From Haliotis rufescens (lineage: Eukaryota): a stretch of DNA of 64,000 nucleotides. Shown piece after piece: positions 2,243 through 49,779 of this stretch; positions within the stretch are counted from its first letter, which is position 1, and each line of letters opens with the position of its first letter. Position numbers and translations under genes: made by a program. The stretch spans positions 23,250,001-23,314,000 of the forward strand of contig NW_025963802.1 of the NCBI RefSeq assembly GCF_023055435.1, read 5' to 3'. The notes beneath the pieces were generated by a model. It was not told the origin of the DNA and did no database searches. It saw only the letters and a list, made by a program, of their open reading frames with translations.

Positions 2243-2427
2243 AACATTCTCACCCTTCCATCTTCGACGTATACCATCGCGATATCAACACTAACAACAT
2301 CATACCAACAACAACCATCACCATCATCACGCTTCCATCTTCTATGTGCATAATCGCAACATCAATACCACCATCAATACAACATACCAGCCACCATCAC
2401 CATCCTCACCCTTCCATCATCCACGTA

Positions 2428-4031: not shown

Positions 4032-4756
4032 TTCAACATAAGCATCATAACTATCATCAGTATATGTTTATCATTATCAGGGCCAGTTGTGATGCATGTT
4101 GATGCAGAGTCTGGTATATACGCCGTGAACACAGTGACGCCTTCTCCCAGCGTCAGCAGCGGTCGTATGGACCACGTTGTCCCCACATGCAGCGCTAGCT
4201 TATGTAAACCATGGGCTATAATTACTCCTCGCCCTCAAAGCGGAAGTACACCCAATAAAGCGTGGAATTGTGAGAGGTCTTCAACACTGAATGCTCAATT
4301 TAATAGATTCTCTATCATTTTTACACCTGCTTCGAAGAAAGAAGTCTAAATGTTTTACCGAGTATATTTCAATACAAGAGTTGCATGAGAACAGACGGGC
4401 CTATACGAACCCTGCGTAATAGGATATAGCGGAAACGGAAATCGGTTCATTAGCCCTTTCGAGTCTCACCTCGCCCCTTTACCAAGACGAAAACAAGATA
4501 AGAAATATTGCCCCCACTATAGGGGAAACTGGGCAGCGGTACAACATAGATAACGGTATTCCGTTGACATATGAGATCAGAGGTCATTTTACTAACATGT
4601 AATAAATGGTTGTGTATGAAACAAGTTATAATGTGACTGTGACTTGGACGTATTGGGTGTGGGAAGACGACAATTCATGTGAGCTGTGGGACAACTTCAA
4701 GTGAAACACCTATGAAACAGATTTCTTTAAGGGGCATTTAGAAGTTGGAGTACTAA

Positions 4757-6140: not shown

Positions 6141-7604
6141 CTTATATTATTATAACTAAGAGGAAAAAGAAACTTTACATCTCAGTTGATTTTATCATAT
6201 GTATGATTTTCAAATGAAAATCTCATAATCGATATTACCTTTTTTTAAATGAACTGTAGTAGCGCTAAGCCAGCATTTACAAAATACTTCTACGTGTTTT
6301 TATTTTTTTAATATAATTTAAGTTAAAACTTAAATTTAAACTGATTTTTTTTTTAAATCGCATAATACATAGCTGCTGATGGGTATCTAAGACATCTTAT
6401 CTTTAAAATTCACTAAAGTTGTTTTTTTTCCGGCATAAATTAACATTTCAAACAATGAAAATTCATTTCTTATCCCAGTCGTCATTGAACCAATTTATAT
6501 TTACAGAAAATCACCAGCCACAGCTTACTTTTTGCCAACTGTTACAGGAATGAGTGATGTTTAAATGAACATAATTAAATTTAACAACAGTTCTTTCAAT
6601 TACATAAATAACAAACTCGGTTTACTTTCATTTACCCCTCAGTGTATGTCATTAGTTTCAGCAGTATCGATATTTATCCTAATCGTCACCAACATTGCTG
6701 TACCGTGGCTGCTCCCACTGAAAGGTGATGCCTTTGTGAATATACTACCATTTGACGTGATATAAGCGCCCCTCGGAAACAGACATGGAGGAAACTGAGG
6801 GCCAATGTAGTCATGTAGGATCTTGTCATTCATCCTCCAAGTACGTCTATTAACTAACAACCCCACGCTGAACGCTGACTGTCTGTTATGTAGATGTAAA
6901 ACTGGATGCAAGGTGCTCGCGTTACCGCATGAACTTTGTACTTTCGGTGTTAACAGTGAAATGTGTGAAAAAACCCGTCAAACTATTTTTTGCAATGTCC
7001 TAATCTGGAGATCACTTACACACCGGTACAACGGGAGTCGCACATCAGATAGTTGGCATATTAGACTCTCTACACTGCGGGCGTCGGTGTGGCTGGTTGA
7101 CTTGGTGTGTATTCGAACCCCGTGTGTCGATATCGATACTCAGCCACTCTTGTTCTCTCGTACAGAGCAGACAACACAGACTGCCCTAACACTACTGTGG
7201 TCTGGATGCCTGCAGGGAGAATCTCACTCGTTCTGGCTTGTGATAATACGGGTATGCTTGAACCGGATAAAGATCGTCAATGTGTTTTATTTATTGAAAT
7301 ATGCAAGTATGTGATGAGTGTGTGAGGTTGGTTTCACACCGCTTGTAACATTTATCAGCATTCGGGTATAGAACAGTAGGATTGAGCCCAGTCATAAGGA
7401 TATTGGTTCGTGTGGGGAATGTCACAAGAGATTATCTGACCCTGAAGTAAATACAAAACCCAGAGAATATCAGTCTCGAATATCTGACCAAACCGATTCA
7501 ATAGGGCGGAAAAGGCAGCATTATGGTGACAATTATATGTCTCCAGGTGTCCGCCAAAAGGGTAACAGAAGGGATGACCTAACATCACTAATGCCCTACT
7601 ACAT

Positions 7605-8952
7605 TCACACCATAGTACCAGTGTTGCCAGTCACACCACAGTACCAGTGTTGCCAGTAACACCACAGTACCAGTGTTGTCAGTAACACCATAGTACCAGT
7701 GTTGTCGGTAACACCATAGTACCAGTGTTGTCAGTAGCACCATAGTACCAGTGTTGTCAGTAACACCATAGTACCAGTGTTGTCAGTAACACCATAGTAC
7801 CAGTGTTGCCAGTAACACCACAGTACCAGTGTTGCCAGTAACACCACAGTACCAATGCTGCCAGTAACACCACAGTACCAGTGTTGCCAGTAACACCACA
7901 GTACCAGTGTTGCCATTAACACCACAGTACCAGTGTTGCCAGTCACACCATAGTACCAGTGTTGCCAGTCACACCATAGTACCAGTGTTGCCAGTCACAC
8001 CACAGTACCAGTGTTGCCAGTCACACCATAGTACCAGTGTTGCCAGTCACACCATAGTACCAGTGTTGCCAGTCACACCACAGTACCAGTGTTGCCAGTC
8101 ACACCATAGTACCAGTGTTGCCAATCACACCATAGTACCAGTGTTGCCAGTCACACCACAGTACCAGTGTTGCCAGTCACACCATAGTACCAGTGTTGCC
8201 AATCACACCATAGTACCAGTGTTGCCAGTAACACCACAGTACCAGTGTTGCCAGTCACACCATAGTACCAGTGTTGCCAGTAACACCACAGTACCAGTGT
8301 TGCCAGTCACACCATAGTACCAGTGTTGCCAATCACACCATAGTACCAGTGTTGCCAATCACACCATAGTACCATTGTTGCCAGTAAAACCACAGTACCA
8401 GTGTTGCCAGTCACACCATAGTACCAGTGTTGCCAGTCACACCATAGTACCAGTGTTGCCAGTCACACCACAGTACCAGTGTTGCCAGTCACACCATAGT
8501 ACCAGTGTTGCCAGTCACACCATAGTACCAGTGTTGCCAGTCACACCATAGTATCAGTGTTGCCAGTCACACCATAGTACCAGTGTTGCCAGTCACACCA
8601 TAGTACCAGTGTTGCCAGTCACACCATAGTACCAGTGTTGCCAGTCACACCATAGTACCAGTGTTGCCAGTCACACCATAGTACCAGTGTTGCCAGTAAC
8701 ACCATAGTACCAGTGTTGCCAGTCACACCATAGTACCAGTGTTGCCAGTAACACCATAGTACCAGTGTTGCCAGTCACACCATAGTACCAGTGTTGCCAG
8801 TCACACCATAGTACCAGTGTTGCCAGTCACACCATAGTACCAGTGTTGCCAGTCACACCATAGTACCAGTGTTGCCAGTAACACCATAGTACCAGTGTTG
8901 CCAGTCACACCATAGTACCACTGTTGCCAGTCACACCATAGTACCAGTGTTG
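7605..8952. repeat. 26-bp minisatellite, about 52 copies (cacaccatagtaccagtgttgccagt)
   Basis: Period 26 (7621 to 7647), highly homogeneous. Confidence 0.97.
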
Positions 8953-17281: not shown

Positions 17282-17344
17282 TTTGTTTGTTGTTGAACGC
17301 CGCACTCAGCAAAATTGCAGATCTATGACAGTGGCCTGTAAATA
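17282..17344 (-). mobile_element. Decayed 3' fragment of the headless SINE-like family (see 38172-38428)
   Basis: tttgtttgttgttgaacgccgcactcagcaa...ctatgacagtggcctgtaaata aligns with 38200-38255. Confidence 0.7.
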
Positions 17345-20067
17345 TTCATATTCATACGTTCCTGGATATGTTTGGATACATAATTCAACAATGCTCAGTT
17401 TGATCTAAAAGTCAGCAAATAATATTTCTTACGGTCTGGATTCTAATTTGGAATGAGGCGTTTCCGAATGTAGAATAGATTTGAAAGTGTCCTCGTGAGA
17501 GAAGAAAGACCCCGACCAAGCTCCGAGCCAACATTTGTCAATGATCTTTGACAATACTAGATTATGAACAGAGAATATGATCCACAATGACTTAGCCAGT
17601 ATATATCGGCCAACTGTTTCCTTGTAAAGGACGAAAGGAAAACGTCATCTCATTTGAACGTTTAGATCGGAAGGTGGTATGATATTCCGCCAGTGTGGAT
17701 CAACGCTACATTTCTTCACTTTTCTTGGCTCGTATTCACATAAGATACGTTTTTTTTAAGAATTAGCAGTTATTTCAATCAATAAAGAAATTTGAGAAAT
17801 TTGCAGATGCATTTATAATTTCCAGTCCAATTATTTCACAGATGCGCAAATATAGAAAAAAGGACAGGGAAGTAAGAATGGTTAAAAAGTTTCCGAAACA
17901 TGACGATTCCAGTGCATCCCTGCCAAGCTTTGGTCACAGGGCATGAAGTCGTTATACCACTAGATGGTATTCTGGATAAGACGGAAGACACAGTCCATCC
18001 TGTCAAGATAGAGGCTGTACGGACGGTGGTCTTTGAAAGCAATAACTCACGATAAGTAGTCAAGAAACCCATTGCTTCATCGCTATCATCCCCGGATCTG
18101 TGTATTATAAATTAATGAACAGATCCTTAGGGGCTATAAACCATGACAGGAATAATAATCAGCCCCTAGCGTGGGGGACCGCCCAATTTAGATCTACCGA
18201 CGCAGGAAGGGACCGATGTGGGTAGGAAACCCTTCCCCAGTCTTCGGCTCCCGACGAGTATTCCTTGTGGACATTCATTAAATGCTGGCCGGGTTACGAA
18301 GGGGGATATTATTGTGAATTTGGCTAATTGGATTGTTGATAGAGGCAAATACACATTGGGGTTATGGCTCCTCCGAAAACCTTACATATCATTCGCGGAA
18401 TCCGTTTAATACGGATAATGGCGCGAACAGGTTTTGTGTCGTCTGCGTCCCGGGGAGCAGACGATAGTTCTAACAGCTTTGTATATAAACTTAGTCTCTG
18501 GGTGGCAGAAATGCAGAGAAGGGTTCGTTCCATACACAGACGATATGTTGAGAATATAATTGTAGGATAAGAACGATCAGTCTGTTTGAAGTTCCACCAT
18601 CAGATAGTTCCTTCATTTTTGGCCCAGAGAAGCGATAATCATCCAGATACTGGGTCGTCTGCTATGTTTCAAGACCTACCTTCTATTGCCTTCGCCGGAG
18701 GAACAAATTAAATTTCATTTCATAGCGTCGGAGAGCGTGGCTTTTCCCAAGGGTGTGAAAAGTAACCAAAGACATATGGAAATATTGTTTGCAGTTAATG
18801 AGATGTAGTGGGCATAAACAATCTACGTAAGAACCTGCTCATTTCTTAAAAGTTTTTACCCCCTTTCGCTGAATGAAAGTCCCCGCAGTCAACTGTAAAA
18901 CGTAATTGTGTGCAAAAAATGTTATGCGATTCTGTTATCGTAAAATCTACATTTTCACAAATAAAACAAATAAACGTGTGTAGAGTTATGCGTATTCACA
19001 TGGAACTCTGTTGCGTTATTCCAGATGATATAGAAGTAGTAAGTATAAGTATTTACACGTCACAAAGACATAACGGCATTGTCAGCGATGATTTCACCGT
19101 TCTGCTTAACTATTCGCGTGTGATACATTGTAGGAAATAATGAGTGAGACAAGATGTAAAAGAGGAGGAAGCAACTCACGCGGTAATTGTATGAATCAGA
19201 ATATTTATATAAACTGACGTATTGTTGGTGCGCACTAACGTGTTTCTTCGGAAGCGTGAAGTAAAGCGATGTGTACAAATGCCATCTTTGAAACACAACT
19301 GCAGAAACATCAGCTAGGTCTAACTTAAACCTATACCCTTGTCCAGATTATCACTGGACATTCTGTTATGCAAAGTTAAAGCAACACAGTATATGTTAGT
19401 AATAGTTTGCAAACAATACGTTTAATCCTGTAACACGACATACATTCTTGAACCAGGATGTTCAAGAGAATTTGTGAAAGACAGGGTCCATATTGTGACA
19501 ATCACATGAACAGTTTTATGATACAGTATTACAAATGTCTGGAGAGGAAATACTAAAAGAATTGTGTCAACAAAGCGTTGCTCACCACTGGTCCAGGTCT
19601 GACAACACTGGATGTACGACCGGATAATCCGGTCGGGGAGACCCACGTGTTGAGAGATTGTGCTGGTCGTGTAACATCCGTGAGGTTCACTCCTGGTATG
19701 CGTCCGCTGGACAGTGTGTTATAGTGTGTTATAGTGTGTTATTCTAAACAAAGGTGCTGTAAACATGAAGTGCATCTGGTTATATCGCTGCAACTACTTA
19801 ATTCCAGCAGACGACATTCCTGACGTTGAGAGTAGACACTAGCGGGAGTATACATCACGCAACACGCAGCACACACAAGTAAGCAGAACACACAACTCAA
19901 CTGCACACATCTTTACCCTCTCTACCTAAGAACCTCTTCAGCTCATCCAAATGAATTGAATCATATCATATGAAATGAACACACACAAGGAGATGTGGAT
20001 TTCTACTAGAAGCGGCTAAGTAGAATCTTAAGTATCTCTTAATCTCTCAGAGCCCTCTCTTACTTAC

Positions 20068-24620: not shown

Positions 24621-24724
24621 GAATAGAACACATCCCATGTCATGTGTTTTTCTTTGGGTCGGACAAGCATAGCGAAATCTTCGTACGTGAAGAAAGCGAG
24701 CATAAGCCCTACTTGAAAAGCACC

Positions 24725-27698
24725 TGTAATCGCTCCACTACAAATACTAAGGTTATCTCGACAAAACAAATACCATGTAGACTCGACACTACAAATACCA
24801 TGTAATCGCTCCACTACAGATACCATGTAATCTCCACACAACAAATACCACGTGATTGCTCCACTACAAATATCATGTAATCGTGACACTGCAAATATCA
24901 TGTAATATCGACACACCAAATACCAGGTAATCGTGACACTACAAATACCATTTAACAGCGACACAACACATACCATGTAATCACGACACAACAAATACCA
25001 TGTAATCAAGATACTATTAATACCAATTTAAGCGCAACACAACAAATGTCATGTAATCACGACACTACAAATACCAATTTGATCGCGACACAACAAATGT
25101 CAAGTAATCTCGACACTACAAATACCATGTAATTGTAACACTACAAATACCATGTAATCGCGACACTATAAATACCATGTAATCACGACGCTACAAATAC
25201 CATGTAATTGTGACACTACAAATGCCATGTAATCTCAACACTACAAATACCGTGATGTAATCTGGACACTTTAAATACCATGTAATCGTGGCACTAAAAA
25301 TACCAGGTAATTGTGACACTACAAATACCATGTAATCATGACGCTACAATTACCATGTAATTGTGACACTACAAATACCATGTAATCATGACGCTACAAA
25401 TACCATGTAATAGTGACGCTACAAATACCATGTAATCTGGACACTACAAATACCATGTAATCGTGACGCTACAAATACAAGGTAATCTAGACGCTACAAA
25501 TGCCATGTAAACGTGACACTACAAATATCGCGACACTAAAAATACCATGTAATCATGACGCTACAAATACCATGTAATGGCGACACAACAAATACAAGGT
25601 AATCTAGACGCTACAAATACCATGTAAGCATGACACCATAAATATCGCGATATTATAAATACCATGTAATCGAAACAGTAACACTGGCGTGGTCACGGCA
25701 TATCTCGATATAAAAATACCATGTAATCGTTACACTACAAATGCCATGTGATCGTGATACTACAAATGCCATGTAATCGTGACACTACTTATACCATGTA
25801 AGCATGACACTACAAATGCAATGTAATTCTGACACTATAAATACTATGTATTCTCGACATTACAAATACCATGTAATTGGGACACTATCAATACCATATA
25901 ATCTGGACACTACAAATGCCATGTAATTGTGACACTACAAATTCCATGTAAGCGTGACACAACAAATACCATGTAATCTCGACATTACAAATACCATGTA
26001 ATTGGGACACTATCAATACCATATAATCTGGACACTACAAATACCATGTAATTGTGACACTACAAATACCATGTAATTGTGACACTACAAATGCCATGTA
26101 ATCTCGACACTACAAATACCATGTAATCGCGACATTATAAATACCATGTAATCATGACGCTACAACTACCATGTAATTGTGACACTACAAATACCATGTA
26201 ATCACGACGCTACAAATACCATGTAATTGTGACACTACAAATGCAATGTAATCTCAACACTACAAATACCGGGATGTAATCGGGACACTTTGAATACCAT
26301 GTAATCGTGGCACTAAAAATACCAGGTAATTGTGACACTACAAATACCATGTAATCATGACGCTACAAATACCATGTAATTGTGACACTACAAATACCAT
26401 GTAATCATGACGCTACAAATACCATGTAATAGTGACGCTACAAATACCATGTAATCTGGACACTACAAATACCATGTAATCGTGACGCTACAAATACAAG
26501 GTAATCTAGACGCTACAAATGCCATGTAAACGTGACACTACAAATATCGCGACACTAAAAATACCATGTAATCATGACGCTACAAATACCATGTAATGGC
26601 GACACAACAAATACAAGGTAATCTAGACGCTACAAATACCATGTAAGCATGACACCATAAATATCGCGATATTATAAATACCATGTAATCGAAACAGTAA
26701 CACTGGCGTGGTCACGGCATATCTCGATATAAAAATACCATGTAATCGTTACACTACAAATGCCATGTGATCGTGATACTACAAATGCCATGTAATCGTG
26801 ACACTACTAATACCATGTAAGCATGACACTACAAATGCAATGTAATTCTGACACTATCAATACCATATAATCTGGACACTACAAATACCATGTATTTGTG
26901 ACGCTACAAATACCATGTAATCGCGACCCAACAAATACCATACAATCTGGACACTACAAATACCATGTAATAGCGACACAACAAATACCATGTAATCGTG
27001 ACAATGCAAATACAATGTAATCTAGACGCTACAAATGCCATGTGAGCGTGACACCACAAATATCGTGACACTATAAATACCATGTAATCGAAACAGTATC
27101 AGTGGCGTAGTCACGGCATATCTCGACATGAAAATACCATGTAATCGTTACACTACAAATGCCATGTAAGCGTGACACTACAAATATCATGTAATCGAAA
27201 CAGTAACACTGGCGTGGTCACGGCATATCTCGACATAAAAATACCATGTAATCGTTACACTACAAATGCCATGTGATCGTGACACTACAAATGCCATGTA
27301 TTTGGGACACTATCAATACCATGTAATCTGGACACTACAAATACCATGTAATCGTGACATAATAAATACCATGTAATCGTGACGCTACAGATACTATGTA
27401 ATCGCGACACCATAAATACCATGTAATATCGACACAACAGATACCATGTAATCCCGACACTACTAATACCATGTAATGGCGACACGATAAATACGATGCA
27501 ATCGTGACACTACCAATGCCATGTAATCTCGACACAACAAATACCATGTAACCGTGACACTATAAATACCATGTAATCTCGACACTACTAATACCAAGTA
27601 ATCGTGACGCTACAAATGCCATGTAATCGTGACACTACAAATATCGCGACACAACAAATACCATGTAATCGAAACAGTACTGGCGTGGTCAAGGCATA
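24725..27698. repeat. About 25-bp satellite (gacactacaaataccatgtaatcgt), about 3 kb, diverged monomers with a 1019-bp higher-order duplication
   Basis: The monomer is visible throughout. Diagnostic variants recur at offset 1019 (e.g. 25672 and 26691). Confidence 0.95.
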
Positions 27699-28034
27699 TG
27701 ACATATCCTGTCAAACAAGTCTGCTGTTGTGTGATGATGTTGTTGTTTGTGGTGTTGAGGGGTTACACGGCATCACAGTTTAAACACATTGACTTGGTGT
27801 TAAACATTGTCTCAATGTTGAAGTCTTTGCACACCCAATTGTTGGCGATGGCTTACCGACGTTGTCATTGTGTTATCACACCGCTTTTACGGGGTCGATG
27901 CTCCAGCGAGTTGGTTTGCCTTCACCAGACTCATAGAGATGACAGATCAAGTATAGAGCCTCCCCGAGTCATCACTGTTAACCTTCCTAAGTAGGCGTTG
28001 TTATCGTCAAGATAATAATACGTTCAATAACATA

Positions 28035-29529: not shown

Positions 29530-30141
29530 TACATCGTTCAACATTCAGCGTTCAGCCGATGGGGAGCAAAGCAATGGCTTTGACCATGTGTCATCCTTGG
29601 ACATGATGGTCGTGGTGAACGCCTCGTGGTAACCATGGCTTGGTGTGACAGAGGGTGGAATTAGTGTGTGTTATATCCGTGCTGTCAGAGTGCGTTACAC
29701 TGTCAGACCATCACACCTTGTGTGTGCCCAAACGCTGGGTGGCATGACTTGACCAGGTCAATATTGATCCTCCTTTAACTGGGGTAGCAATAGATGGTTT
29801 CTCTGTTTACCGATCGTTCTGTGGCCGATATCCTTTACGGTGGGGACCTTGTGCACTGGCTTATTTACAAATGCTGATATCTGAAATGAAATCAAATTCC
29901 TCAAGGAACAGGTATTATTTTTAATAGAGCCCGATTTAGCCAGCTAGAAATGGAAATTACAAAGTCTGAATACTGTTTTAATGATATCGGGCATGTTCAA
30001 ATGACTGAAAGCTGACATTCTATGATATCTGGTCGGCTAATAAGGTTCCATGCTATACGTTGCATGCTTAAATTCATTCGCATTTGAAAAATGTAATATA
30101 ACTTAATCTGAACATCATAGAACGATTTTGTATTTTGTAAC

Positions 30142-30313
30142 CGAGTCTGAACCAGACAACCCAGTGATTGACATCAGGAGGAACGATCTACGCAATCGGG
30201 ATACGATTACATGCATCAACCAAGTCAGCGAGCCTTGACCACCGATCCCGTTAGTCGACTCTTACGAGAAGCATGGTTTGCTGAAGACCTGTTCTAACCC
30301 GGATCTTCACGGA
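30142..30313 (-). mobile_element. Headless SINE-like / non-autonomous retroelement, copy lacking the 3' tail
   Basis: Aligns with 38258-38428 and with the reverse complement of 46744-46856. Confidence 0.85.
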
Positions 30314-33001
30314 TGTTTATTATTTTCAAGTTGATAGGTCATGAAAGTACATGTAGGTTGTTGTGTTATCAGCATTTGTGAGAAATGCAAACATATTTCA
30401 TATATATTTATGTCGAACAGCAATTAACCGAAAATGACATGTTTTGCAATCTTGGCCCTGTCCCTTCAAATTGGCAATACCTCTTGAACTACCTGTTTGT
30501 GTACGTTTTCATATGCAAAATGAACTTTCAAAGTCTGCCCTTTTTTACCAACCCTGAACCCGAGAGTTGCAGTCGAATGAAGAAAGAATGGATGCTCTCA
30601 TTGCAGATCTATGTTCCCATCAGATTAAACTGACAGGTTATGTGGACGACACCCACACTGGTCACCTTGTCCATACCAGCGACCCCTGCCAGATAGCCAC
30701 ACCACCAACCGTATCTAAATTTACTTATGCCACATAAAATTGATGATTGCCTTTGAACCGCCAAGTCTCGCCAGTAGGAGGCGCCATGGGAAGTCACGCG
30801 ACCGGCACCAGAGCTTGTGCGCTGATCAGTGAGACAATGCCTCCATTAGCGTAGTGGTCAAGCAACAGTTGACCGTTGTGATTAGCGCCTTTTAATGACC
30901 ACTACTCGATGATAGAAGTGGTCGTTAATTACCGCCACCGGCAGGCAGAACACTACGCCAGTTTTCCTCTGCTAATATTTGAATTTAAACGGTTGTGCTG
31001 GCTCATGTAACCTTCATGTGGTGATGTCTTGGGAATAGAAGTCTGAAGTTGGTGTAAAATAAATCCTCATTTGAAGATTATCGGGGTTTTGTCAGATAGA
31101 TAGATTGTACATATAGTAATATTGTGTGTCCTTTTCGTGTTGACAACATGTAATATATGATGAATGTTAATTTATTATTGCTATGTCGCGAGTGTTCACA
31201 TTTTTCGAAACATCGTTTACCACACTTCTCCATTTGGACAAGGGCTAAAACACGGAACCGGTCAAACATGTATACATCACGTGTTTCGCCAAGGATTGCC
31301 CGATCAAAAGAAAAAAATAAGAACATTGGTTTCTTCATTAACATGTGATGAAAAAAACGTAGTCCACATGTCCCTTGCTCACACTATGGCATTGTACCTC
31401 GTTCTCATCCCACACAGTAATATGTCAGGGCGTCACAAAAGTGTACAAATATTGTGTACGAATATATGTCATATTCTCTTTCTGACTGAATAATTTACCT
31501 CGGCGTGAATAGCAACAGCGAATACATGTAAATACATATTGCAATACCACTGCTGTAATGTCACTCAAATTGAGTTTTCATTACCAAAGGAAACATCTGA
31601 TTCTATATTCGTCACAAAACTTATTTTCCTGTGTTGTCAACTCAACTTCTATTGACATATTACACTGGCCCACTGAATGAAGGGATTGCATAACGTCTAT
31701 ATCATATGCGCATTACAAAACCCACATGAACGGATGTGCGCGGATGGATCTGAGTTCTGAACCAATTGTTGCGTTTGATCATAGAAGATGGGGACTTGTT
31801 TCTGGGACATTGTAGTGGTGAGGGAGGGGGAGGGGGAGGTGATGGGGGGTTGAAGTGTCAGTCCCGCGGCTGGCACATCGCACCAGGAAGTCCATGTAGA
31901 TAGAAGGCCCTACACATCCACTCTCAAACCTCTTAAACAACGCGAAAAGTCCGGGTTTTAGAATAGAGCAACAACAATTGACTCGCGTGCCTCTCAAGTA
32001 AGCGATGACACAGACACTATACTGGTGAGGGCAAGCGATGCATCCCTCTGACGCAGGATGTTGTTATCCCAGTGGGTTTAGTTCTACCACCCAGCTACAG
32101 CACCGTGTTCCAGCTTTGCACAATGTTTGCTTTGCGTTTGAATGTGCTGATATCTCGACTAACGAGTGATCTTGCTGTATGTGATTCACAATACCCGTAG
32201 TTAAGATAGAAATTAAACATGGGGAAATAATGTCCATAGGACATAATTTGTCATTACTTCAAAAAAATAATAACCTCAGAGCTAATGCATTTGGCGTGTT
32301 TTCAAATATTATTGCAAGGTTGTGTAAATGGATTTTTAATTATGCAATTGTTCACGACAGTGTTAGGTTACTTTTTCATAGTGTATGAAAACCTTGAGCT
32401 ACACAAGGAAGTATACGTCTAGTCTGCTGTTTTTCGAGAATAAAGAAATAAGATATATTCTATATCTGCACTCACGCTTCACCCTTGTTCCTTATCCTTC
32501 ATTCTTGCGACATATCATTATCTTGTAACGACACATCGTGTACGCTCTGATATTCCGCCACAGAGACGAAGAATTCATAGATTCTAGACATAAATTCTAG
32601 TTTGCCCGTCCCCGCTCCGTCTTCGTCATATCGGACCTCTCTATTTCGGGGTTGTGGAAAAATATTACAGACACTGTTTGGTTGCATATTTGAACTTGCA
32701 TGTTCAGACAATTATATATATATATTGTTTACAGTTAATTAACGGGCAGACCTCGTTAGTCGTAATAATGCAGCACCCACAAAGATTATATTTGTTTTAC
32801 AACTATAAACAGGAGTCGGTTTTATTTCTATTTTTGTGAAATGATTATTATGTTTTTGCTTGAGATTCTCAGTGTCGGATACGGTTTGTAGTTATTGGCG
32901 CAGGCTGTTTTCTGTCAGCTTACATTATGCTACACGATGTACAATGCGACACGCACACACATGTCAGTGCAGGCATAATCTCTATTAATTATAAATATTG
33001 C

Positions 33002-36068: not shown

Positions 36069-38171
36069 TTTTTCTAAAATTTGTAAATCAAGTTAAATTA
36101 CGTTCAGGGTGATTAATCAAATGTCATAGTTGATAATTAAGACGTCAACACTAGAAAATTATCAGTCTCGAATTCCCGACGAAACAGATTCTATTGGGCA
36201 AATTAGCTGTGAAAAGTACATCAATAGATCACGGAAAATCAGTGATGACACCAGGTGTTCACCAAAAACATACCCTGCTCTGTAAAACAAATTTTGAGCG
36301 TTGATTTTTACTTTACGTTGAAAGTATGTTAATGGAGATGTTTACGAATTCGTTCTGCCATGTAATGTGATTATATCACGTAATATATAATACAATGATG
36401 TTCCTCTTCCAATTTGTACTTCGTACTTGGAAGAGTGCTACTTGAGACACAAGTGTTTACGTACTTCATCCTTGAAGTAAGTAAGTCCTTCCTATTAATG
36501 CAACAAAATGTCGAAGACTATCACAAGAAACAATTTCAATATTATCCGTCGTCTATCTTTACCGGTTTTCCAACCAAGCGGCAAGTCGGTCGCTTTTTAC
36601 CTCTTCAAAAATTAATATCTAAAAGTGGTGTACTTAATACAGCTCATAAAATAGTTAGAAACCGCTTCATGTGAAGATTATTTCAAGTCAGTGTTTAATG
36701 ACTCTGGTATTAAATCACTCTTATCACAACATTCGTACATAAAGCCCTTCTTTCCCTCACTCTACCGCCCGCCACCAGGCTTATGTTATCATGCAATGAG
36801 AATTTGTCCGTGCGTTATTTCAATAAGTTTTTAAGCCCCTCCACTTCATGTTGAGGGGCGCTCACTATATGACACTCTCCGAGCTGTGGCAATCTTCAAG
36901 AATATTTACCGTTTCATTCACAGAATCCCGGTGTTACCCCGCAAATGGTTAACTCTTTAACTGTGGAGACATTTGGCCAGGCAGTACACGGGCACCCTGG
37001 CTCTGTTTACAGAGATGTATGTATCTAAGGTTTAGTTTACACCATAACCAAACGCAATAACAGTACCCTAGCAACAAACGGTAACGCCAGAAAGGGTGTG
37101 GGGGTGTATAATGTCGACGGGAGGGCGGCCTCTTCACCTGTGGATCACGGCCAACAGACGCGGGATAACTGGTGAGATTACTGACAACATTGACACATCC
37201 CTATACTTTGTCAATGGAGATCACGACCGGTGCATCTGATCGGCAATAATATAAGTAATGCGATGTCGGATGATTAAGCGACAGATGTTTATTTTGTCGT
37301 AGACACCAATACTTCCGTGACGTGTGTTGAGTGGATGTTACAGTTGTGCTGTAGGTTGAGCATCGGCACACGTCGATGTCAAAATGCGTTATACGAACAG
37401 CAAGGTCACAACAACCTACCAAGACCAGGTCGCCATTGTGGCCACACAATTCACATTGAAGTAGTCCCGCTGGAAGGATGTACCTGGGTATGTTCTGTCC
37501 TGGTATCATTACTTAAAGGAACAGATACAAGCACGAAATTATGGCAACCAAACTTTATATATTCGGTCAGAAATACAAAATGAGAAACAATGTTTTATTC
37601 ACACATGTTGTGTATTGCAGGGCAAGACTACAATCAGATATTTGTAAACATATACCAGCTGTAGACGTATCCACGGACATTCTTGCCACCGTCCTTTGTC
37701 ATTATTGCATTAGTGATATTTGTCAAAATACACATCTCTTATCGCGTGTGGGTTTGTTTATCATGCCGTTCTCTCACTGTGGCCGAGTTAACTTGACACT
37801 GAAGTGGTTAATATTCCTATTTCTAATTAAATCTTCATTAATTATCTTCCTCTTTTGGCCAAGACTGATAAAAAGTCCTCGAGGTATCTTTCTGGAATTT
37901 CCGTTCAGCTACTGAAATGTGAAATATTCAGACAGATATATTTATGCATATCTATATGTTGGGCTCAACATATATAAACAACCAATTTACAGCAGTATAA
38001 AGCAAGTGCAGTACAGTTATCTAAGTTTTGAAATTACAAATTTTCTGTTGATCATATATCAGGCTATTCTAATATATTTCGTCTTCCAAGCGTATAAATA
38101 TGCGTCATTTATTCGAAAATGCATTCGACTGTCCAGTAATGCCCGAAACATGATCTGTGTGTCTGAGTTCA

Positions 38172-38428
38172 CTTTGTTTGTTGGTTGGTTGGTTTGTGTG
38201 TTGTTTAACGCCGCACTTAACAATATTCTAGCTATATGACGGCGGTCTGTAAATAATCGAGTCTGGACCAGACAATCCAATGGTTGATATCATGAGCATC
38301 GATCCACGCTTTTGGGATACGATTACATGCATTAATCAAGACAGCAAGCCTGACCACCCGATTCCGTTAGTCGCCTCTTACGACAAGTATATCTTGCTGA
38401 AGAACTCTACTAACCTCAATCTCCTCGG
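38172..38428 (-). mobile_element. Apparently full-length headless SINE-like retroelement (about 257 bp) with (AAAC/AACC)n tail
   Basis: Same family as 30142-30313 and 46744-46930. Flanked by a decayed 15-bp direct repeat, gtgtgtctgagttca (38157-38171) and gtgtatctaagtaca (38429-38443), matching 12/15. Confidence 0.85.
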
Positions 38429-38894
38429 GTGTATCTAAGTACAAAGGCCAATAGTCATGTTCTGAGGTTGTCGATGCTGGTGGCTCGGAAATAGATTCGG
38501 TTAATCAATTATCTTTTACCTGCTATGAATTATCTTACCTAACTTTGCCGGCGGAACTATACAACAGATGAGGACATGGGGTGTCTAACAAATATACAGA
38601 GAAGTACAAAAGTGACTACGACTTCTTTTCGTGACCAAGTCATTGGTAAAAATCTTTTCAATTTCCTACCTCGTTTAGTTTATGCTCCGAAGAAGAAAAG
38701 AAATCAAATCAAAAGTATCAAAATTCTCCTCAATTACGAGCGAAGTGGCAACTCCAAACTGACGAGATTGGGTCCAAACACGCCTGAGTAGTTGTATAGA
38801 ACGCCCTCTGGCGGCTTCCCCCGTCTAAACAACATGGCGACATGAACCTGCCTTCTGATCAGTCTGTCGCGGAAGAGAATAAATACCCAGCGGC

Positions 38895-41800
38895 CTGTCT
38901 TGTACAGACCATCCTAGGCTTGTGGAGAGCTGGACCACAGGGTCTGTCTAATATAAGGACAATCTAAGGGAGAAGAAACGTGGTACAACGGGTCTGTCTT
39001 GTACATATCATCAGGGAAGGGGATATGGTATGACGGATGCGTCTTGTACAGATCATCAGAGAAGGTGGTACCACGGGTCTGTCTTGTAGAGATCATCACA
39101 TAAGGAAAGGTGGTACCACGGGTCTGTCTTGTAGAGATCATCACATAAGGCAAGGAGGTATACGGGTCTGTCTTGTACAGATCATCACATAAGGAAATGT
39201 GGTAACACGGGTCTGTCTTGTACAGATCATCACATAAGGAAAGGTGGTACCACGGGTCTGTCTTGTACAGATCATCACATAAGGAAAGGTGGTACCACGG
39301 GTCTGTCTTGTACAGATCATCACATAAGGAAAGGTGGCACCACGGGCTGTCTTGAGGAGATCATCACATGAGGAAAGGTGGTACCACGGGCCTGTCTTGT
39401 ACATGTCATCAGGGAAGGATAGGTGGTACCATGGGTCTGTCGTGTCATATCATCAAGGAAGGAAAGGTGGTACCATGGGTCTGTCTTGTACATATCATCA
39501 GGGAAGGATAGATGGTACCACGGGTCTGTCTTGTACAGATCATCACATAAGGAAAGGTGGTACCACGGGTCTGTCTTGTACAGATCATCACATAAGGAAA
39601 GGAGGTACACGGGTCTGTCTTGTACAGATAATCACAAAAGGAAAGGTGGTACCACGGGTCTGTCTTGTAGAGATCATCACATACGGAAAGGAGGTACCAT
39701 GGGTCTGTCTTGTACAGATCATCACGTAAGGAAAGGTGGTACCATGGGTCTGTCTTGTACATTTCATCAGGGAAGGATAGGTGGTACCGTGGGTCTGTCG
39801 TGTCATATCATCAAGGAAGGAAAGGTAGCTGTCTTGCACATATCATCAGGGAAGGATAGGTGGTACCACGGGTCTGTCGTGTACACATCATCACATAAGG
39901 AAAGGTGGTACCACGGGTCTGTCTTGTACAGATCATGACATAAGGAAAGGTGGTACCACGGGTCTGCCTTGTATATGTCATCAGGGAAGGATAGGTGGCA
40001 CCATGGGTCTGTTGTGTACATATCATTAGGGAAGGAAAGGTGGCACTATGGGTCTGTCTTGTACATATCATTAGGGAAGGAAAGGTGGCACTATGGGTCT
40101 GTCTTGTACATATCATTAGGGAAGGAAAGGTGGTACCATGGGTCTGTCGTGTCATATCATCAGGGAAGGGAACATGGTAACATAGGTATGTCTTGTACAT
40201 AACATTAGGGAAGGATGGGTGGTACCATGGGTCTGTCTTGTACATATCATTAGGGAAGGAAAGGTGGTACCATTGGTCTGTCGTGTAGATATCATTAGGG
40301 AAGGAACGGTGGCATCATGGGTCTGTCTTGTACATATCATTAGGGAAGGAAACATGGTACCATTGGTCTGTCTTGTACAGATCATCAGGGAAGGAAAGGT
40401 GGTACCATGGGTCTGCTGTGTACATATCATTAGGGGAGGAAAGGTGGTACCATGGGTCTGTCGTGTTATCATCAGGGAAGGGAACATGGTACCATAGGTA
40501 TGTCTTGTACATATCATCAGGGAAGGATTGGTGGCACCATGGGTCTGTCTTGTACATATCATTAGGGAAGGAAAGGTGGTACCACGGGTCTGTCGTGTAC
40601 ATATCATTAGGGAAGGAAAGGTGGTACCATGGGTCTGTCGTGTAGATATCATTAGGGAAGGAACGGTGGCATCATGGGTCTGTCTTGTACATATCATTAG
40701 GGAAGGAAACATGGTACCATTGGTCTGTCTTGTACAGATCATCAGGGAAGGAAAGGTGGTACCATGGGTCTGCTGTGTACATACCATTAGGGGAGGAAAG
40801 GTGGTACCATGGGTCTGTCGTGTTATATCATCAGGGAAGGGAACATGGTACCAAAGGTATGTCTTGTACATATCATCAGGGAAGGAATGGTGGCACCATG
40901 GGTCTGTCTTGTACATATCATTAGGGAAGGAACGGTGGCATCATGGGTCTGTCTTGTACATATCATTAGGGAAGGTAACATGGTACCATTGGTCTGTCTT
41001 GTACATATCATCAGGGAAGGAAAGGTGGTACCATGGGTCTCTCGTGTACATATCATTAGGGAAGGAACGGTGGCATCATGGGTCTGTCATGTACATATCA
41101 TTAGGGAAGTTAACATGGTACCATTGGTCTGTCTTGTACATATCATCAGGGAAGGAAAGGTGGTACCATGGGTCTCTCGTGTACATATCATTAGGGAAGG
41201 AACGGTGGCATCATGGGTCTGTCTTGTACATATCATTAGGGAAGGTAACATGGTACCATTGGTCTGTCTTGTACAGATCATCAGGGAAGGAAAGGTGGTA
41301 CCATGGGTCTGCTGTGTACATATCATTAGGGGAGGAAAGGTGGTACCATGGGTCTGTCGTGTTATCATCAGGGAAGGGAACATGGTACCATAGGTATGTC
41401 TTGTACATATCATCAGGGAAGGATTGGTGGCACCATGGGTCTGTCTTGTACATATCATTAGGGAAGGAAAGGTGGTACCATGGGTCTGTCGTGTACATAT
41501 CATTAGGGAAGGAAAGGTGGTACCATGGGTCTGTCGTGTAGATATCATTAGGGAAGGAAAGGTGGTACCATGGGTCTGTCGTGTAGATATCATTAGGGAA
41601 GGAACGGTGGCATCATGGGTCTGTCTTGTACATATCATTAGGAAAGGAAACATGGTACCATTGGTCTGTCTTGTACAGATCATCAGGGAAGGAAAGGTGG
41701 TACCATGGGTCAGCTGTGTACATATCATTAGGGGAGGAAAGGTGGTACCATGGGTCTGTCGTGTTATATCATCAGGGAAGGGAACATGGTACCATAGGTA

Positions 41801-43195
41801 TGTCTTGTACATATCATCAGGGAAGGATTGGTGGCACCATGGGTCTGTCTTGTACATATCATTAGGGAAGGAACGGTGGCATCATGGGTCTGTCTTGTAC
41901 ATATCATTAGGGAAGGTAACATGGTACCATTGGTCTGTCTTGTACATATCATCAGGGAAGGAAAGGTGGTACCATGGGTCTCTCGTGTACATATCATTAG
42001 GGAAGGAACGGTGGCATCATGGGTCTGTCTTGTACATATCATTAGGGAAGGTAACATGGTACCATTGGTCTGTCTTGTACATATCATCAGGGAAGGGAAC
42101 GGTGGCACCATGGGTCTGTCGTGTCATATCATAAGGGAAGTAAAGGTGGTACTATGGGTCTGTCTTGTACATATCATAAGGGAAGTAAAGGTGGTACCAT
42201 GGGTCTGTCGTGTACATATCATCACATAAGGAAAGGAGGTACACGGGTCTGTCTTGTACATATCATTAGGGAATGGAGAATGGTACCATAGGTCTGTCTT
42301 GTACATATCATCAGGGAAGGAAAGGTGGTACCATGGGTCTGTCTTGTACATATCATCACATAAGGAAAGGAGGTACCATGGGTCTGTCTTGTAGAGATCA
42401 TCACATAAGGAAAGGTGGTACCACGGGTCTGTCTTGTAGAGATCATCACATAAGGCAAGGAGGTATACGGGTCTGTCTTGTACATATCATCAGGGAAGGA
42501 TAGGTGGTACCACGGGTCTGTCGTGTACAGATCATCACATAAGGAAAAGTGGTACCACGTGTCAGTCTTGTACAGATCATCACATAGAGAAAGGTGGTCC
42601 CACGGGTCTGTCTTGTACAGATCATCACATAGGGAAAGGTGGTCCCACGGGTCTGTCTTGTACAGATCATCACATAAGGAAAGGAGGTACACGGGTCTGT
42701 CTTGTAGAGATCATCACATAAGGCAAGGAGGTATACGGGTCTGTCTTGTACATATCATCACATAAGGAAAGGTGGTACCACGGGTCTGTCTTGTAGAGAT
42801 CATCACATAAGGCAAGGAGGTATACGGGTCTGTCTTGTACATATCATCACATAAGGAAAAGTGGTACCACGTGTCAGTCTTGTACAGATCATCACATAGG
42901 GAAAGGTGGTCCCACCGGTCTGTCTTGTAGATATCATCACATAAGGAAAGGTGGTCCCATGGGCCATTCGTGTACATATCATCAGGGAAGGGAATATGGT
43001 ATCATGGGTCTGTCTTGTATATGTCATCAGGGAAGGAAAGGTGGTACCATGGGTTTGTCTTGTACATGTCATCAGGGAAGGATAGGTGGTACCATGGGTC
43101 TGTCGTGTCATATCATCAAGGAAAGAAAGGTGGTACCAATGGCCTGTCTTGTACATATCATCAGGGAAGGGAGTATGGTACCACGGGTCTTGTAC
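38895..43195. repeat. About 45-bp minisatellite, about 4.3 kb (gggtctgtcttgtacatatcatyagggaaggaaaggtggtaccat) with higher-order blocks
   Basis: The 15-aa periodic ORFs (MICTRQTHGTTFPSL) reflect the 45-nt unit. Occasional 43/44-nt units shift the frame. Confidence 0.97.
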
Positions 43196-43789
43196 GTGAA
43201 AATAAGGTTAGGATGAAACATATAACACAGCGCACACATGATATCTAGCGTAGTGTAGAACTGAGACAAGAATGAAATAATGGACAGGGAAATGATTGAA
43301 GAAGACCCTGGAAGCAACAGAGCACGAGTAGAGAGAAGGGTCTGGGGTAGGGGTGGGGGTTGGATGTACTAAGGCGTGGCTTGTGGAGAGTGTGCGGTGA
43401 AGGTGAGAGACAGGTGGATGTCTGTAGACATGTCGGTTCCTGGGTGCCTGGATAACGGTCTGGGAGGAGACTGTTTCAGGATCTGTATCATCAAGCCAAT
43501 AGTAAACACGCCACGGGTGTGTATGAGATAGGGTGCAGCTAACGCCACGTGGGAAAAGTGGAACTTTATCTGTTATTATTACTGTTCCGTATTGACTATA
43601 TGTATATGTATATTTACTTTGTTGATAGGAATTCGCTTGCACGGAAACTGCATCGATGTTATTTTTTCTTTGACGTCTGGTAGAACATACATAATTGATA
43701 CCAGGTATTATGTTCTGTTCTGATTAATGATATCATGCCTCAAAGCAAAAAGAAAACATAACACCCATTTGGTTTGTTCTGTATACACG

Positions 43790-44700: not shown

Positions 44701-45149
44701 TCACTGTATGCCACATCTATTGCATTCACAGCAGCCCCCATCACCGAATGTAACATCAACTGCAGCCACATCCACCCTTTCACAACAATACCTCAAGTGT
44801 CCCTGTGTACCCCACAATCAGATAGTGACGAAATCAGATGAGGCCTTGCTGAAGGCTTTGAGCTAATATCTATGAGAGTAAAGCCTTCCCGTGCATAGTC
44901 ATATTATTAAATTATTATAAATTATTAAACGATCTCCCCGGCTGTCTGTGAAGTGACTGTGGATGTCTGAAAGTAACTATAGTATACGAACTTTCCTGGA
45001 CAGCTACATATTACACCTCATAACAAGCACAATCAAGGACATATGGCTCGATGTGTTTTTCTAGAACAAGCGTCGTGTTCCAGCCTCAATGCCTCAGCAT
45101 TGTCTTCCCCCGTCAATATTCACTTGCATTCCCCTTCAATATATAAGGC

Positions 45150-46402
45150 CGCGTTCCCATTCCATATAAATTTATGTTTCCCCTACATATAAACATAAGT
45201 TCCCCTTCCATATAAACCCATATTACCTACACACAATAATTCAATGTTATCCTTACATGTAAAGCTTGTGTTCCCATCATAAATCAATGTTACCCCTGCA
45301 TATAATTCTATAGTATCCTGAGCTATAAAACTGTTTCCAATGCATATGTGGTTGAGGCGTTTCATGTAATCTAATTTTCCTTATGATTATAAAACTATGT
45401 TCCCCTCACATTTAAATCCACGTCACGCCTACACATGAATCCACGTTTCCCTTACCTGTAAAGTTATGGTACCCTCATGCATAAATCTATGTTCTTCTGT
45501 GTTCCTCTTATATAGAAAACTATTTTCCCCTTACATATAGATATGTGACCCTTACATATAACTACATGTTACCCCTAAATATACATCCATGTTTCCCTTA
45601 CATATATATGTCACCCTCACATTTAAATCTTTGTTATCCCAACATATAGATCTATGTCATCCTCACATATAACTGTATGTTACCCTTACATTTAAATCCA
45701 TGTTACCCTTATATTTAAATCTATGTCACCCTTACATATGAATCTATGTCACCCTTACATATGAATCCCTTACATGTGAATCTATGTCACCCTTACATAT
45801 GAATCTATGTCACCCTTACATATGAATCTATGTCACCCTTACATATGAATCTATGTTTCCCTTACATGTGAATCTATGTCACCCTTACATATGAATCTAT
45901 GTCACCCTTACATTTGAATCTATGTCACCCTTACATATGAATCTATGTCACCCTTACATATGAATCTATGTTTCCCTTACATATGAATCCATGTTTCCCT
46001 TACATGTGAATCTATGTCACCCTTACATATGAATCTATGTCACCCTTACATATGAATCTATGTCACCCTTACATGTGAATCTATGTCACCCTTACATATG
46101 AATCTATGTCACCCTTACATGTGAATCTATGTCACCCTTACATATGAATCTATGTCACCCTTACATATGAATCTATGTCACCCTTAAATATAAATGTGCG
46201 TTCCCCTAACCTATGACTCTTTGTTCCACTAACAGACAAATTTATGTTCCCCTTACATATAAATCTGTGTTCCCATTGCAATTAAATCTATGTCACCCCT
46301 GCATACAAATCTATGTTCCCCTTAGATTTAAATCTATGTCACTCCTACATACAAATCTACGTTCCCCTTACATTGAAATCTATGTCAGCCTTACATATAA
46401 AT
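45150..46402 (+). repeat. 23-bp minisatellite (atatgaatctatgtcacccttac); homogeneous core about 45720-46190 with degenerate flanks
   Basis: 23-nt period in the core. Confidence 0.93.
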
Positions 46403-46743
46403 ACATTAATTTGTTGCGAATATTCACCACTATGGAATCCTTGGCCTTAGGGTCCTTTTGACAGCAACAAACAAAGCAGAGAATCATACAAATATACTGC
46501 CGGACAAGAAAAAGAATACATCCGTGTTTGATGGTGGCTAAGAATGAAACAAACAAGAAATTGTTGGTTATTCGATGGTGATGGATTTGATATGGGTATC
46601 ACAGTTGGGTTTTTGGACCTTAATTTTGCAGTGTTTCGAGGGACTGTTTTCAGCCTAGTGACGTGTTGATAACGTTTGTATTGTTTAGGTCCAGTCCAAT
46701 TTTCAACTGTATACTTTCTTTTGTATATATTTCTTCGATCCAT

Positions 46744-46930
46744 CTAACGGGATCGGGTGGTCAGGCTCGCTGACTTGGTTGGTGCATGTCATCGCATCCC
46801 AATTGCGTGGATCGATGCTCAAGATATTAATCACTGGATTGTCTGGTCCAGACTCGATTATTTACAGACCGCCGTCATATAGATGGAATATTGCTGAGTG
46901 TGGCGTTAAACAAAAAAACAAAAAACAAAC
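46744..46930 (+). mobile_element. 5'-truncated copy of the headless SINE-like family
   Basis: ctaacgggatcgggtggtcaggctcgctgacttgg...gactcgattatttacagaccgccgtcatatagatggaatattgctgagtgtggcgttaaac followed by an A/C tail. Confidence 0.88.
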
Positions 46931-47479
46931 ATGGATGTCGGATGCTGATGGTTGAAACCCATTCTATTATGTGCAATGTGCCTTTTCTCACATGTAAGGT
47001 ACATATCTGTTGCCCGGTCGAATTGCCAAACTGGTGGCATTACATTTACAACATGCCAACCACAATATTGTATTTCGAATTAATTATGTAAGACGCCATT
47101 CTCCAGATATTAAAGATACTTTCCGAATGAAATAGACCTATGGGGAATAACTCAAAGTTAAGCATTTATAGCAAACGACAGAAAACTAAATGTGGTATTC
47201 TTACCGATTCGGACCAAAGCCAGCATGCATAAGACATACTTGCACTATAATTAGGTGTACGGTAGGATACATTCGTTGCCCACCGATCCCGGGGGAGGAT
47301 GGGTTGATGTACCATGTATGATGGTCTTCGTAAGACGAATATAAATGAATTTAGTGCTCGGGGAACGTAAACTGACATAGCGAGTATATCAACACACGCA
47401 CCCTGTAGGATTTATGATTTATGATTCATGTACCCTTTATGTAAGTTTATGTTCCCCGAGACCGAAGATGAACACATAT

Positions 47480-47712
47480 ACATATATGTAAGTTAAACAA
47501 AGACTGATACGTAAGGTGGACAAAGACAAAGACAAGGATTTCAATGTAAAGGGAACATATTTATATGTAAGGGTAACATAGATTAATATGTGAGGGGAAC
47601 ATAGATTTAAATACAATTGTAACAAAGAGTTAAATGTGAGGGGAACATAGATTGATATGTAAGGGGAATATAGATTGGTGTGGAAGAACATTGATGTATA
47701 TGTAGGGATAAA
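47480..47712 (-). repeat. Inverted, degenerate block of the same 23-bp minisatellite as 45150-46402
   Basis: gtaagggtaacatagattaatat and gtgaggggaacatagatttaaat are reverse complements of the 23-bp unit. Confidence 0.8.
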
Positions 47713-49779
47713 AAATATTTAAGATGACGTCATTATCCCAAGGATCCCAAGGATCCCAAGGATCTTATATTGGTAAATATTTGCAAATAATTAAAGAATT
47801 AAAAATGAAAAATAAACAATTAATAACATAAGAAGAATATGGGCAATGATAATCGGCGGCATTGGGACATCCGAGTGAATCGCCTGCTTGTATTGCAGTG
47901 GCAAGTCAATCATTGTGTGGAATAGATGGTTGGTTCACGTCATGCAACGTGACAATTGCCCCATGTAGGCTGAACATAAGCAGTATGCTGACTGGTGGAG
48001 CTATGTAATAACTTGTTCCGCAGTTATGATTCCAGGTACACCTGAACGTGGTGGGCCTATTGGTTGCAAGTCTATCTGGCAATATGTTAAAACGTGAACA
48101 CTCCTGTTACCTCCCTCGGCTATGAAATGGCCCCATTTGAAGACAATGTTAAAACAGACAAATCTAACTGTTTAACACCCATGGCAACTGCTAGTTATTT
48201 CTGCAGATGTTTTAAGATTATCTTCATGTTTTTTATCTAGATTTTTGTTGACTGGCGGCAGACGTCGTAATTATATTTGTTTACACCGGGTCCTTCGCGA
48301 TCTCTGATTGAAAATTACGACAACCATAAGTGGGGTCGACCAAGTTCATTTGCGAACAAGGGTAGCTCATTTTCACGTCGATGTAGGCCTCATGTCGCCA
48401 GAATGCGCTAAGCTTTTTACCTTGTCGGAATAAAGAGAAGATTTTTCTGATTTTGAAGCTGTCTTAAAGGTTCAACAGATGAACAGTTATGGAATTCTGC
48501 ATCCGCTTTCTCAGTGTCAGTTTCGGTGAGAGATATTGTCAAAGTAAATTAAGCATGCCAAACACATATGTTTCACTGAAGACACCTATACAATAATTCT
48601 CTTACTCAACATTTATTTTGATTTCCATGTAGTTTATTTACATATATTCTGACTAGAAAGCAGGTGATGTTATTTTTTCAAACAGCAATTAAGAAGTAAA
48701 AGCGTAAGTCTGTTTTGATGGCATTATTCGGATGAAAGTTGTTTATGGAGACGGTTAATATCACTATAGTTGAACACGGAAATTAATTACACTTGGCTTA
48801 TAACGTTAGCGTTTGAAATGCGAAGTGTGGTATTATAACTGAATGACTCACCACAAATGACTCCAGCTAAGGGTAAAATTAGGATGCATGTATTAACATG
48901 ACGCAGGTCTGTAAACCTCTTATACGAAACACCTTTATTACATTACCAAAATACATTGTCAAATGTATCTAGGTGAAATCGTAAGTTCACTGGTTCCCGG
49001 GCTATGCGCTGAACAAGTCTGTGCGCCTGTTTATACGGCTAAGTGCCTGTTCACGTCTACGTTACAGCTCAAGTGCTCAGTTCAGGTCTACCATATGACG
49101 CTCAAGTATGACAATGATTAATTAGGACATGTACAGCCATGCCGATGCCGAGTGTTATGAATGAACAACGCCGGCGTAAGGGTCTAATCCAAGTGGTCAT
49201 TAGTGGTCGCAGAGAAACAAAGGGTCAAGTATTCCTGCTCAATACTGACCGAGAGTTGCTGTATGGATAGCGTGGTTTGACACATGTCGATCTTCAGCTC
49301 ATCTAAAGCTAATATTTCATCACTGAACCCTCTCGAAATGAAGCCTTGTTATTTCATTGGTTATGTTTTATAAACAACGATCTTATTTGTTTCGGACTTT
49401 TCCATCTTTTGCGTAAAGGGACCTGAAGTGCTTTGGCACAGTGGAGATTAATAGGGGATGCATCACGAGTTGACTGTCATAAGAATTCTTTGGTTCCGTT
49501 GTCTGTGCAAATCGGTCACGAATGTAGTTGAAGTAGATTTGTAATAATAAAATGTCACTTTTACGTCATCCTGGGAAAAGAATATCAATTATTAAATGCA
49601 TTTCAACTTTCACAACACAACACAATTGCTCGTGGCATTTGCGATCAACCACGGTTTACCCCCTTGTAATCAATAGAGTAAATTCGGCCAAGTTCTCATA
49701 AATAGTGTTGTCAAGTCCTATCTAAAGCATGCCAGTTTTCTCTCTATAAATATATAGCTAGGTATACAACTATCTACAG

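Follow-up and report, generated by a model that had tools for sequence, protein, structure and literature searches.

Many LINEs and the LP-SINEs have precise 5' ends although they carry no Pol III head, and the accessible text of the 2016 paper on LP-SINEs left their head as a presumed promoter (PMC4758252). How such ends are set is the question raised by two short elements in a 64,000-nt stretch of the Haliotis rufescens genome, a stretch that as a whole is called the window below. A first-pass annotation of the letters had noted that a sequence at 30313-30245 and a second copy near 38.4 kb, both on the minus strand, begin at the same point, and had proposed that they start with a ribozyme-like RNA. 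Both sequences were present as stated, the second at 38430-38172, and the start of the family mapped to approximately 30315 and 38431, confirming that the two copies begin at its true 5' end.

A SINE family and its 5' end

The SINE is ~250 nt long (about 230-257 nt), codes for nothing and has more than 11,000 copies in the genome. A 27-mer spanning the head/body junction gave 11,313 exact genome matches and a tail 27-mer gave 22,497, with no genome match for the reversed control 27-mers (junction, tail). The copy at 30138..30315 (minus strand; self-BLAST versus the 38-kb and 46-kb copies, and sequence) is a decayed, 3'-truncated LP-type element with head and body, whose homology stops near 30138 without a tail. 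The copy at 38172..38431 (minus strand) is full length and ends in CAAA/CCAA, the tail repeats of the SINE. Model R1, whose training set included both of these heads, scored the structured head of the first copy (30240..30315, minus strand; a predicted double pseudoknot and hairpin) at 61.4 bits and the second copy at 58 bits. Self-BLAST also identified a 5'-truncated copy without the head at 46744..46930 (plus strand) and an old tail fragment at 17282..17347 (minus strand). Large minisatellite arrays occupy 1611-4048, 7602-8952, 24700-27719, 38831-43230, 45105-47726 and 58064-59796 and explain why the window has long open frames.

The 38-kb copy is bracketed by the decayed 15-bp target-site duplication that the first-pass annotation had described (5' copy at 38429..38443 and 3' copy at 38157..38171, both minus strand); 12/15 positions match, with a chance of 0.0078 (5000 random pairs), and the last 2 bases of the 5' duplication overlap the start of the element. 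Among the first 30 tail-anchored copies in the genome, 12 started exactly at the first base of the family, a G, and 17 started within 4 nt of it; 13 were truncated or rearranged and missed all or part of the head. Duplications of at least 8 nt were found in 21/29 copies with head and tail (45 examined, best-hit loci), ending within 2 nt of the SINE start in 17 of the 21. No Pol III box motif was detected in the one full copy scanned, and none of the 8 loci scanned had a tRNA head. A search further upstream for a tRNA or 5S head revealed no upstream sequence shared among 17 full copies. The upstream flanks differ from one another, the 8 loci lack a tRNA, and copies and duplications share one start; the 5' end is real.

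A headless family of this kind is not new. LP-SINEs of gastropods and bivalves carry a head of ~68-70 bp where other SINEs have a tRNA-derived one (Matetovici et al. 2016, PMC4758252); this LP ('LINE promoter') head, for which a promoter was suggested with the L1Tc promoter/ribozyme named as an analogy, is common to the 5' ends of Nimb-17_LMi, I-3_DR, RTE-9_CPB and the scallop MESC SINEs (PMC4758252). Judged by sequence, the head of our SINE is homologous to the LP head of mollusc SINEs. The two kinds of SINE also share a LINE-derived head, duplications and a short tandem-repeat tail, and the 255-bp consensus of the abalone LP SINEs Hdi_LP and Hmi_LP compares with about 230-257 nt here (PMC4758252). 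The AATATA hexamer of the Hdi_LP paper was found in 2/84 tails, and the family is likened to LP-SINEs by head, length and description (PMC4758252). The scallop head in Supplementary Figure S2 of that paper agrees with ours in the sequence of the core hairpin and, judged by eye, can form the same helices from another stem sequence; in its accessible portions the paper gives no structure and names no virus (PMC4758252). At two loci (L002:2576-2795 and L030:2003-2171) the head was fused, by insertion or as a chimera, to a SINE that has a tRNA head and an ACTC tail, an arrangement that resembles the scallop MESC SINEs (PMC4758252). A candidate SINE-LINE chimera at L328 proved to be a LINE inserted into the SINE with a duplication and was rejected.

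The predicted fold of the head

The head is predicted to be a conserved structured RNA made of two H-type pseudoknots in series and a hairpin, a model supported across 31 families. On the minus strand of the 30.3-kb copy, pseudoknot 1 would consist of stem S1 (30314-30310 with 30301-30297, from column covariation), a single U loop (30309), the 7-bp stem S2 (30308-30302 with 30289-30283) and an A-rich loop 3 (30296-30290). Pseudoknot 2 would combine the 3-bp stem S3 (30282-30280 with 30272-30270, from RNAalifold) with P3 (approximately 30277-30275 with 30249-30247) and hold in its long loop the hairpin P4 (30253..30269), which has a 7-nt loop and in this copy a stem mismatch at 30268 and a loop change at 30258. 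Since the 30.3-kb copy alone folded no better than its shuffles (z -0.66), the structure cannot be judged from that copy alone; in the 38-kb copy, S1 and loop 3 have decayed.

The families came from contigs of metagenomes, viruses and genomes, in which pattern scans yielded at least 173 matches (at least 120 of them metagenomic). Among the matches listed, 131 with enough flank and the loop motif formed 41 clusters; with one copy from the abalone's own genome added, sequence anchors allowed 31/42 to be parsed, and the other 11 were left out. The search patterns fixed 17-22 nt of the core, so its invariance is imposed by the search. One of the 23 frames flanking the clustered loci was a LINE-type endonuclease.

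Pairing within families was compared with pairing after partners were shuffled among families. This analysis gave z values of 12.4 for S2, 5.5 for P3 and 2.3 for S1. Paired cells made up 86.7% of S2, with double changes in 6/7 pairs. The innermost pair of S1 was Watson-Crick in 27/31 families (17 G-C, 10 C-G; 0/20,000 permutations) and the outer pair of S3 in 21/23 families counted (0/100,000 permutations), shuffle counts that are not probabilities because the families are related. The fourth pair of S1 was Watson-Crick in 25/31 families, and the two pairs between it and the innermost vary too little for testing. RNAalifold revealed 15/26 double changes in S3 at a position that the search pattern left free. 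P3 is short and weak in the SINE and 5-6 bp long in LINEs, and its register shifts among families. P4 is near-invariant; its sequence is conserved, as is that of loop 3. A first register for P4 with a 6-nt loop was dropped for the 7-nt loop after RNAalifold and inspection of the pairs in 78 heads, whose closing pair was U.U in 30, G-C in 28, G.U in 13, A-U in 1, G.G in 1 and U.U with C.A below in 5. The C.A mismatch of these 5/78 heads fits the 6-nt-loop register better, which is also the register carried by model R1.

When heads from the SINE, LINEs and viruses were aligned, S1, S2, S3 and P4 were 92-96% paired, and 11/18 pairs changed on both sides; the otherwise fixed G-C of S3 was flipped in two viruses. 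Stem sequences vary freely while pairing is kept, and this covariation, the viral S3 flips included, indicates that the constraint acts on the folded RNA. The structure drawn in the first-pass annotation survived in part. Its 8-bp stem corresponds to the covarying 7-bp S2, with the eighth pair formed in 10/26; its other three helices were rejected, namely a pseudoknot (z 1.1; 38-69% of cells paired), a closing helix (z -0.3; 43.6%) and a GUAA tetraloop hairpin (50%). Within one 26-row alignment that structure paired 62.0% of cells versus 87.5% for the revised one (without S1). The double-pseudoknot fold has no Rfam match, and no description of it was found in the literature covered, which excluded most subscription journals and Repbase/Dfam (PMC8256844 served as a background source only). 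A minisatellite at L321:9272-9916 repeats a 52-nt unit equal to the first pseudoknot of the head only.

The fold might work in LINEs and viruses and be a mere passenger in the SINE, copied from read-through RNA regardless. The weakness of P3 in the SINE would fit, as would a 22-nt duplication within pseudoknot 2, present in 61/91 SINE heads and marking the dominant subfamily, and the 13/30 tail-anchored copies that lack all or part of the head. S1, S2 and S3 are intact in the common sequence of the family, however, and 17/30 copies start within 4 nt of the first base of the head, leading us to rate a passenger role as highly improbable.

The head in LINEs and viruses

The same fold heads I/Nimb-type LINEs of the genome. 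The SINE head aligned to the 5' ends of these LINEs with scores of 61-62 (best shuffle 35-39), and a model R1 match lay ~1.85 kb upstream of ORF2 in 14/18 regions fetched around endonuclease hits. The three head-bearing ORF2s scanned encoded endonuclease, RT and RNase H domains, the set that we take to mark I/Nimb elements, the clade being named from domain content. These domains speak against the RTE origin proposed in the first-pass annotation, which had pointed to bipartite RTE derivatives; head and tail match RNase H-bearing LINEs. The SINE tail matched the 3' end of LINE L378 in 31/41 columns (0/2000 shuffles), a similarity that is significant only when 3'-anchored and not in a whole-LINE search. 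No match to the SINE body was found in three LINEs tested, and the exact partner LINE was not found among the genome LINEs compared. A young LINE family that came first in the ranking for RNase H was rejected as the partner because it lacks head and tail (0/14 loci), and a metagenome endonuclease query had no match in the genome. The analysis bears out the first-pass annotation in so far as the SINE is headless and truly begins with ~70 nt of pseudoknotted RNA taken from the 5' end of a LINE. Among loci L365-L379, the ~600-nt LINE 3' UTR contains blocks conserved across subfamilies that may be structured, and the LINE copies cluster in a few megabase regions, often inserted into each other.

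Two arrangements of the LINE head were observed. One family without an HDV-like motif starts at the head itself: each of the 16 distinct flanks stops just before one and the same U (18/30 loci matched the anchor), so that its first base is a pyrimidine, with no extra G. A 12-bp duplication was present in L378. The 5' ends always lie 6-7 nt before S2, although the first base differs (G in the SINE, U in the LINE). In a second LINE group the ~58 nt before the head fit an HDV-like descriptor, which finds the upstream motif in 7/143 distinct heads and 0/284 control windows. The motif matched RF02682 weakly at L382:1774-1831 (G000:C54; 28.5 bits, E 0.0042, under the gathering score of 44). Young, intact LINEs with RNase H (L382; L413-L442, 30 loci) begin exactly with this minimal ~58-nt motif; they are of a type outside the six LINE clades with ribozymes, which do not include I/Nimb, in the accessible text of PMC5786205. 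The head of this group had 737 exact matches in the genome, and with an anchor in the head only, the first 30 of the 737 all carried the HDV-like motif and started at its first G; none started at the head. Every helix is kept in the heads of this group, where P3 and P4 contain compensatory changes. In sequencing runs labelled with the same species, small-RNA reads were sparse fragments of ~31 nt that did not pile up at the 5' end, which is neutral as to mechanism. At L382:1837-1867, 127 antisense 31-nt reads of piRNA-like size share one start over the first pseudoknot (run X21).

Viral loci were scored with model R1, which had been built beforehand without loci from the viral collection. Full-length matches of 42.5-72.1 bits were obtained in 7/53 viral loci (6 distinct), and the others scored at most 27.3. 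Five distinct contigs, RNA viruses by Pfam (RdRP_4; RdRP_3 with a nodavirus-type capsid; RdRP_3; S-domain coat; Peptidase_A21 capsid), carry the fold where the 3' UTR begins. It lies in sense orientation, 4-99 nt downstream of the last long frame, and at least 16-108 nt follow it; in one contig a second copy stands in tandem and is truncated by the end of the contig. The best viral copy (72.1 bits; L204:7955-8030) is flanked by two frames that share a strand, in a DNA-virus contig of 212,482 nt; ~110 nt separate it from the 1056-aa stop-to-stop frame that follows. Three looser viral scans produced no further full-length match, and a scan of a phage collection gave one weak 35-nt match.

These data bear on the first-pass proposal of a new class of self-cleaving ribozyme, by which the head would cut at its own 5' edge. 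The compact five-helix double pseudoknot of the head is ribozyme-sized with a conserved core, the 5' ends are sharp, and its position equals that of HDV-like ribozymes in other LINE clades (PMC5786205). Searches against Rfam returned no ribozyme match for 701 window bases (E up to 10) or for 16 homologous loci (E up to 1), including hammerhead, twister, twister-sister, pistol and hatchet, and the hammerhead core was absent from both strands of the 30.3-kb and 38-kb copies. The HDV nested double pseudoknot (P1-P2-P3/L3-P1.1-P4 with the catalytic C in J4/2) was found by descriptor in 0/35 SINE heads, consistent with the first-pass view that the fold is not canonical HDV. Most SINE heads (61/91) also tolerate the duplication in the core, and a cut in the viral 3' UTRs, where more genome lies 3' of the fold, would sever the genome end. 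HDV-led copies keep their ribozyme in 30/30 cases and begin at its start, which argues against both self-cutting at the head and transcription starting at the head's own first base. A structured RNA at the 5' end thus stands and its ribozyme role is weakened; we regard self-cleavage by the head as improbable.

The published LP idea, an internal DNA promoter, here combined with an RNA fold as in trypanosome Pr77, we consider unlikely, if somewhat less so than self-cleavage. In keeping with it, the head lies 5'-terminally in SINEs and in LINEs from several clades (PMC4758252), the starts are sharp, and a promoter-plus-ribozyme precedent is known (PMC3383444). A promoter that starts transcription at its own first base would lose the upstream ribozyme, yet all 30 copies have retained it; one LINE family begins with a pyrimidine and no extra G; and the fold occurs in RNA viruses, which have no DNA stage, with stem sequences that vary freely as long as they pair.

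A proposed exonuclease block and its relation to known RNAs

Our preferred explanation, to which we assign a probability of roughly 0.4, is that the head is an exonuclease-resistant RNA (xrRNA) of a new fold and not a self-cutting RNA. As a LINE-derived module of two stacked pseudoknots, it would block 5'-to-3' exonucleases and thereby fix where the SINE and LINE RNAs cut back from host read-through transcripts begin. Once such a transcript was decapped or cut, Xrn1 or Xrn2 would degrade it up to the knot and stall, and the protected RNA could then be copied by a Nimb-type LINE protein that recognizes the LINE-like tail. In the viruses, the same stall would leave a short 3' subgenomic RNA. In the HDV-led LINEs, ribozyme cleavage would create a 5'-OH end, and the knot would act as a second line of defence. 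Xrn1 is not known to attack the 5'-OH end left by HDV-like cleavage, which would explain why HDV-led copies start at the ribozyme. An exonuclease block would also account for the fixed distance from the start to S2 whatever the first base, for the viral position and for the tandem copy. With slightly greater reserve, we propose that the tandem double pseudoknot may form a new xrRNA class that occurs in LINEs and SINEs of animals as well as in unrelated RNA viruses. As a cellular xrRNA, it would carve promoter-less retroelement RNA from host transcripts, alone or behind an HDV-like ribozyme.

Several observations sit less easily with an exonuclease block. No described xrRNA class fits the head. 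The first base of a copy is usually already paired, leaving no single-stranded overhang before S1, whereas in flaviviruses Xrn1 halts a few bases before the fold. The HDV-led LINEs keep the whole fold despite a lesser need for it, and a start at the knot, as could be expected of a decay product, occurs in none of the 30 copies. The 22-nt duplication falls inside pseudoknot 2 in 61/91 SINE heads, only five RNA-virus contigs were found, and one viral match (L204) lies between DNA-virus genes. The near-invariant hairpin could instead be a protein or ribosome site, and this leads to the main rival, in which the head is an element for cap-independent translation or RNP assembly that binds a ribosome, an initiation factor or a LINE protein, and the 5' ends are set otherwise. 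Such a function would suit the retention of the head immediately downstream of an HDV-like ribozyme, which would release an uncapped RNA, and the conserved sequence of the hairpin and loop 3; cap-independent translation enhancers also sit at the start of viral 3' UTRs. It leaves unexplained the exact start at S1 of SINE and HDV-less LINE copies, and the SINE has no coding capacity. We judge a translation or RNP role to be possible but on the unlikely side.

A covariation-backed fold that these elements share with RNA-virus 3' UTRs makes the question of the 5' ends testable on a 70-nt RNA. The genome itself supplies natural controls, since the head occurs both alone and preceded by an HDV-like ribozyme. 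Cellular xrRNAs were still to be found according to a 2021 review (PMC8374639).

Known viral xrRNAs (flavivirus 1a/1b/2, xrRNA-LT and coremin) resemble the head in their place at the 3' UTR start, tandem copies, pseudoknots and size of ~70 nt, and in a 5' strand that pairs into the fold and is followed by a conserved U (PMC8374639, PMC10520033). The head occupies the corresponding positions, at the 5' boundary of the elements and at the start of viral 3' UTRs, there with a tandem copy. It differs in having no three-way junction and no coremin spacer and in occurring in retrotransposons, and its resistance is a prediction. Where the flavivirus RNAs form a three-way junction (P1-P2-P3) with PK1/PK2 and a 15-16-nt ring, the supported fold here is two serial H-type knots. 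Coremin consists of a 4-bp hairpin with a YG..D loop, a conserved spacer and a second hairpin, with Xrn1 halting one base before the hairpin (PMC10520033); a coremin descriptor was negative on both window copies, and their 5' ends lie ~45 nt upstream of the hairpin. The HDV-like ribozymes of R2, RTE and ingi/L1Tc are likewise 5'-terminal, clade-swapped modules of non-LTR elements that form a double pseudoknot with a 7-bp stem (PMC5786205, PMC3383444). The head differs from them in strand order, in having no HDV P3/L3 and in its start, as copies begin 6-7 nt upstream of the 7-bp stem and not at its G (G+1 of P1). The true HDV-like motif is a separate module that lies upstream of the head in one LINE group.
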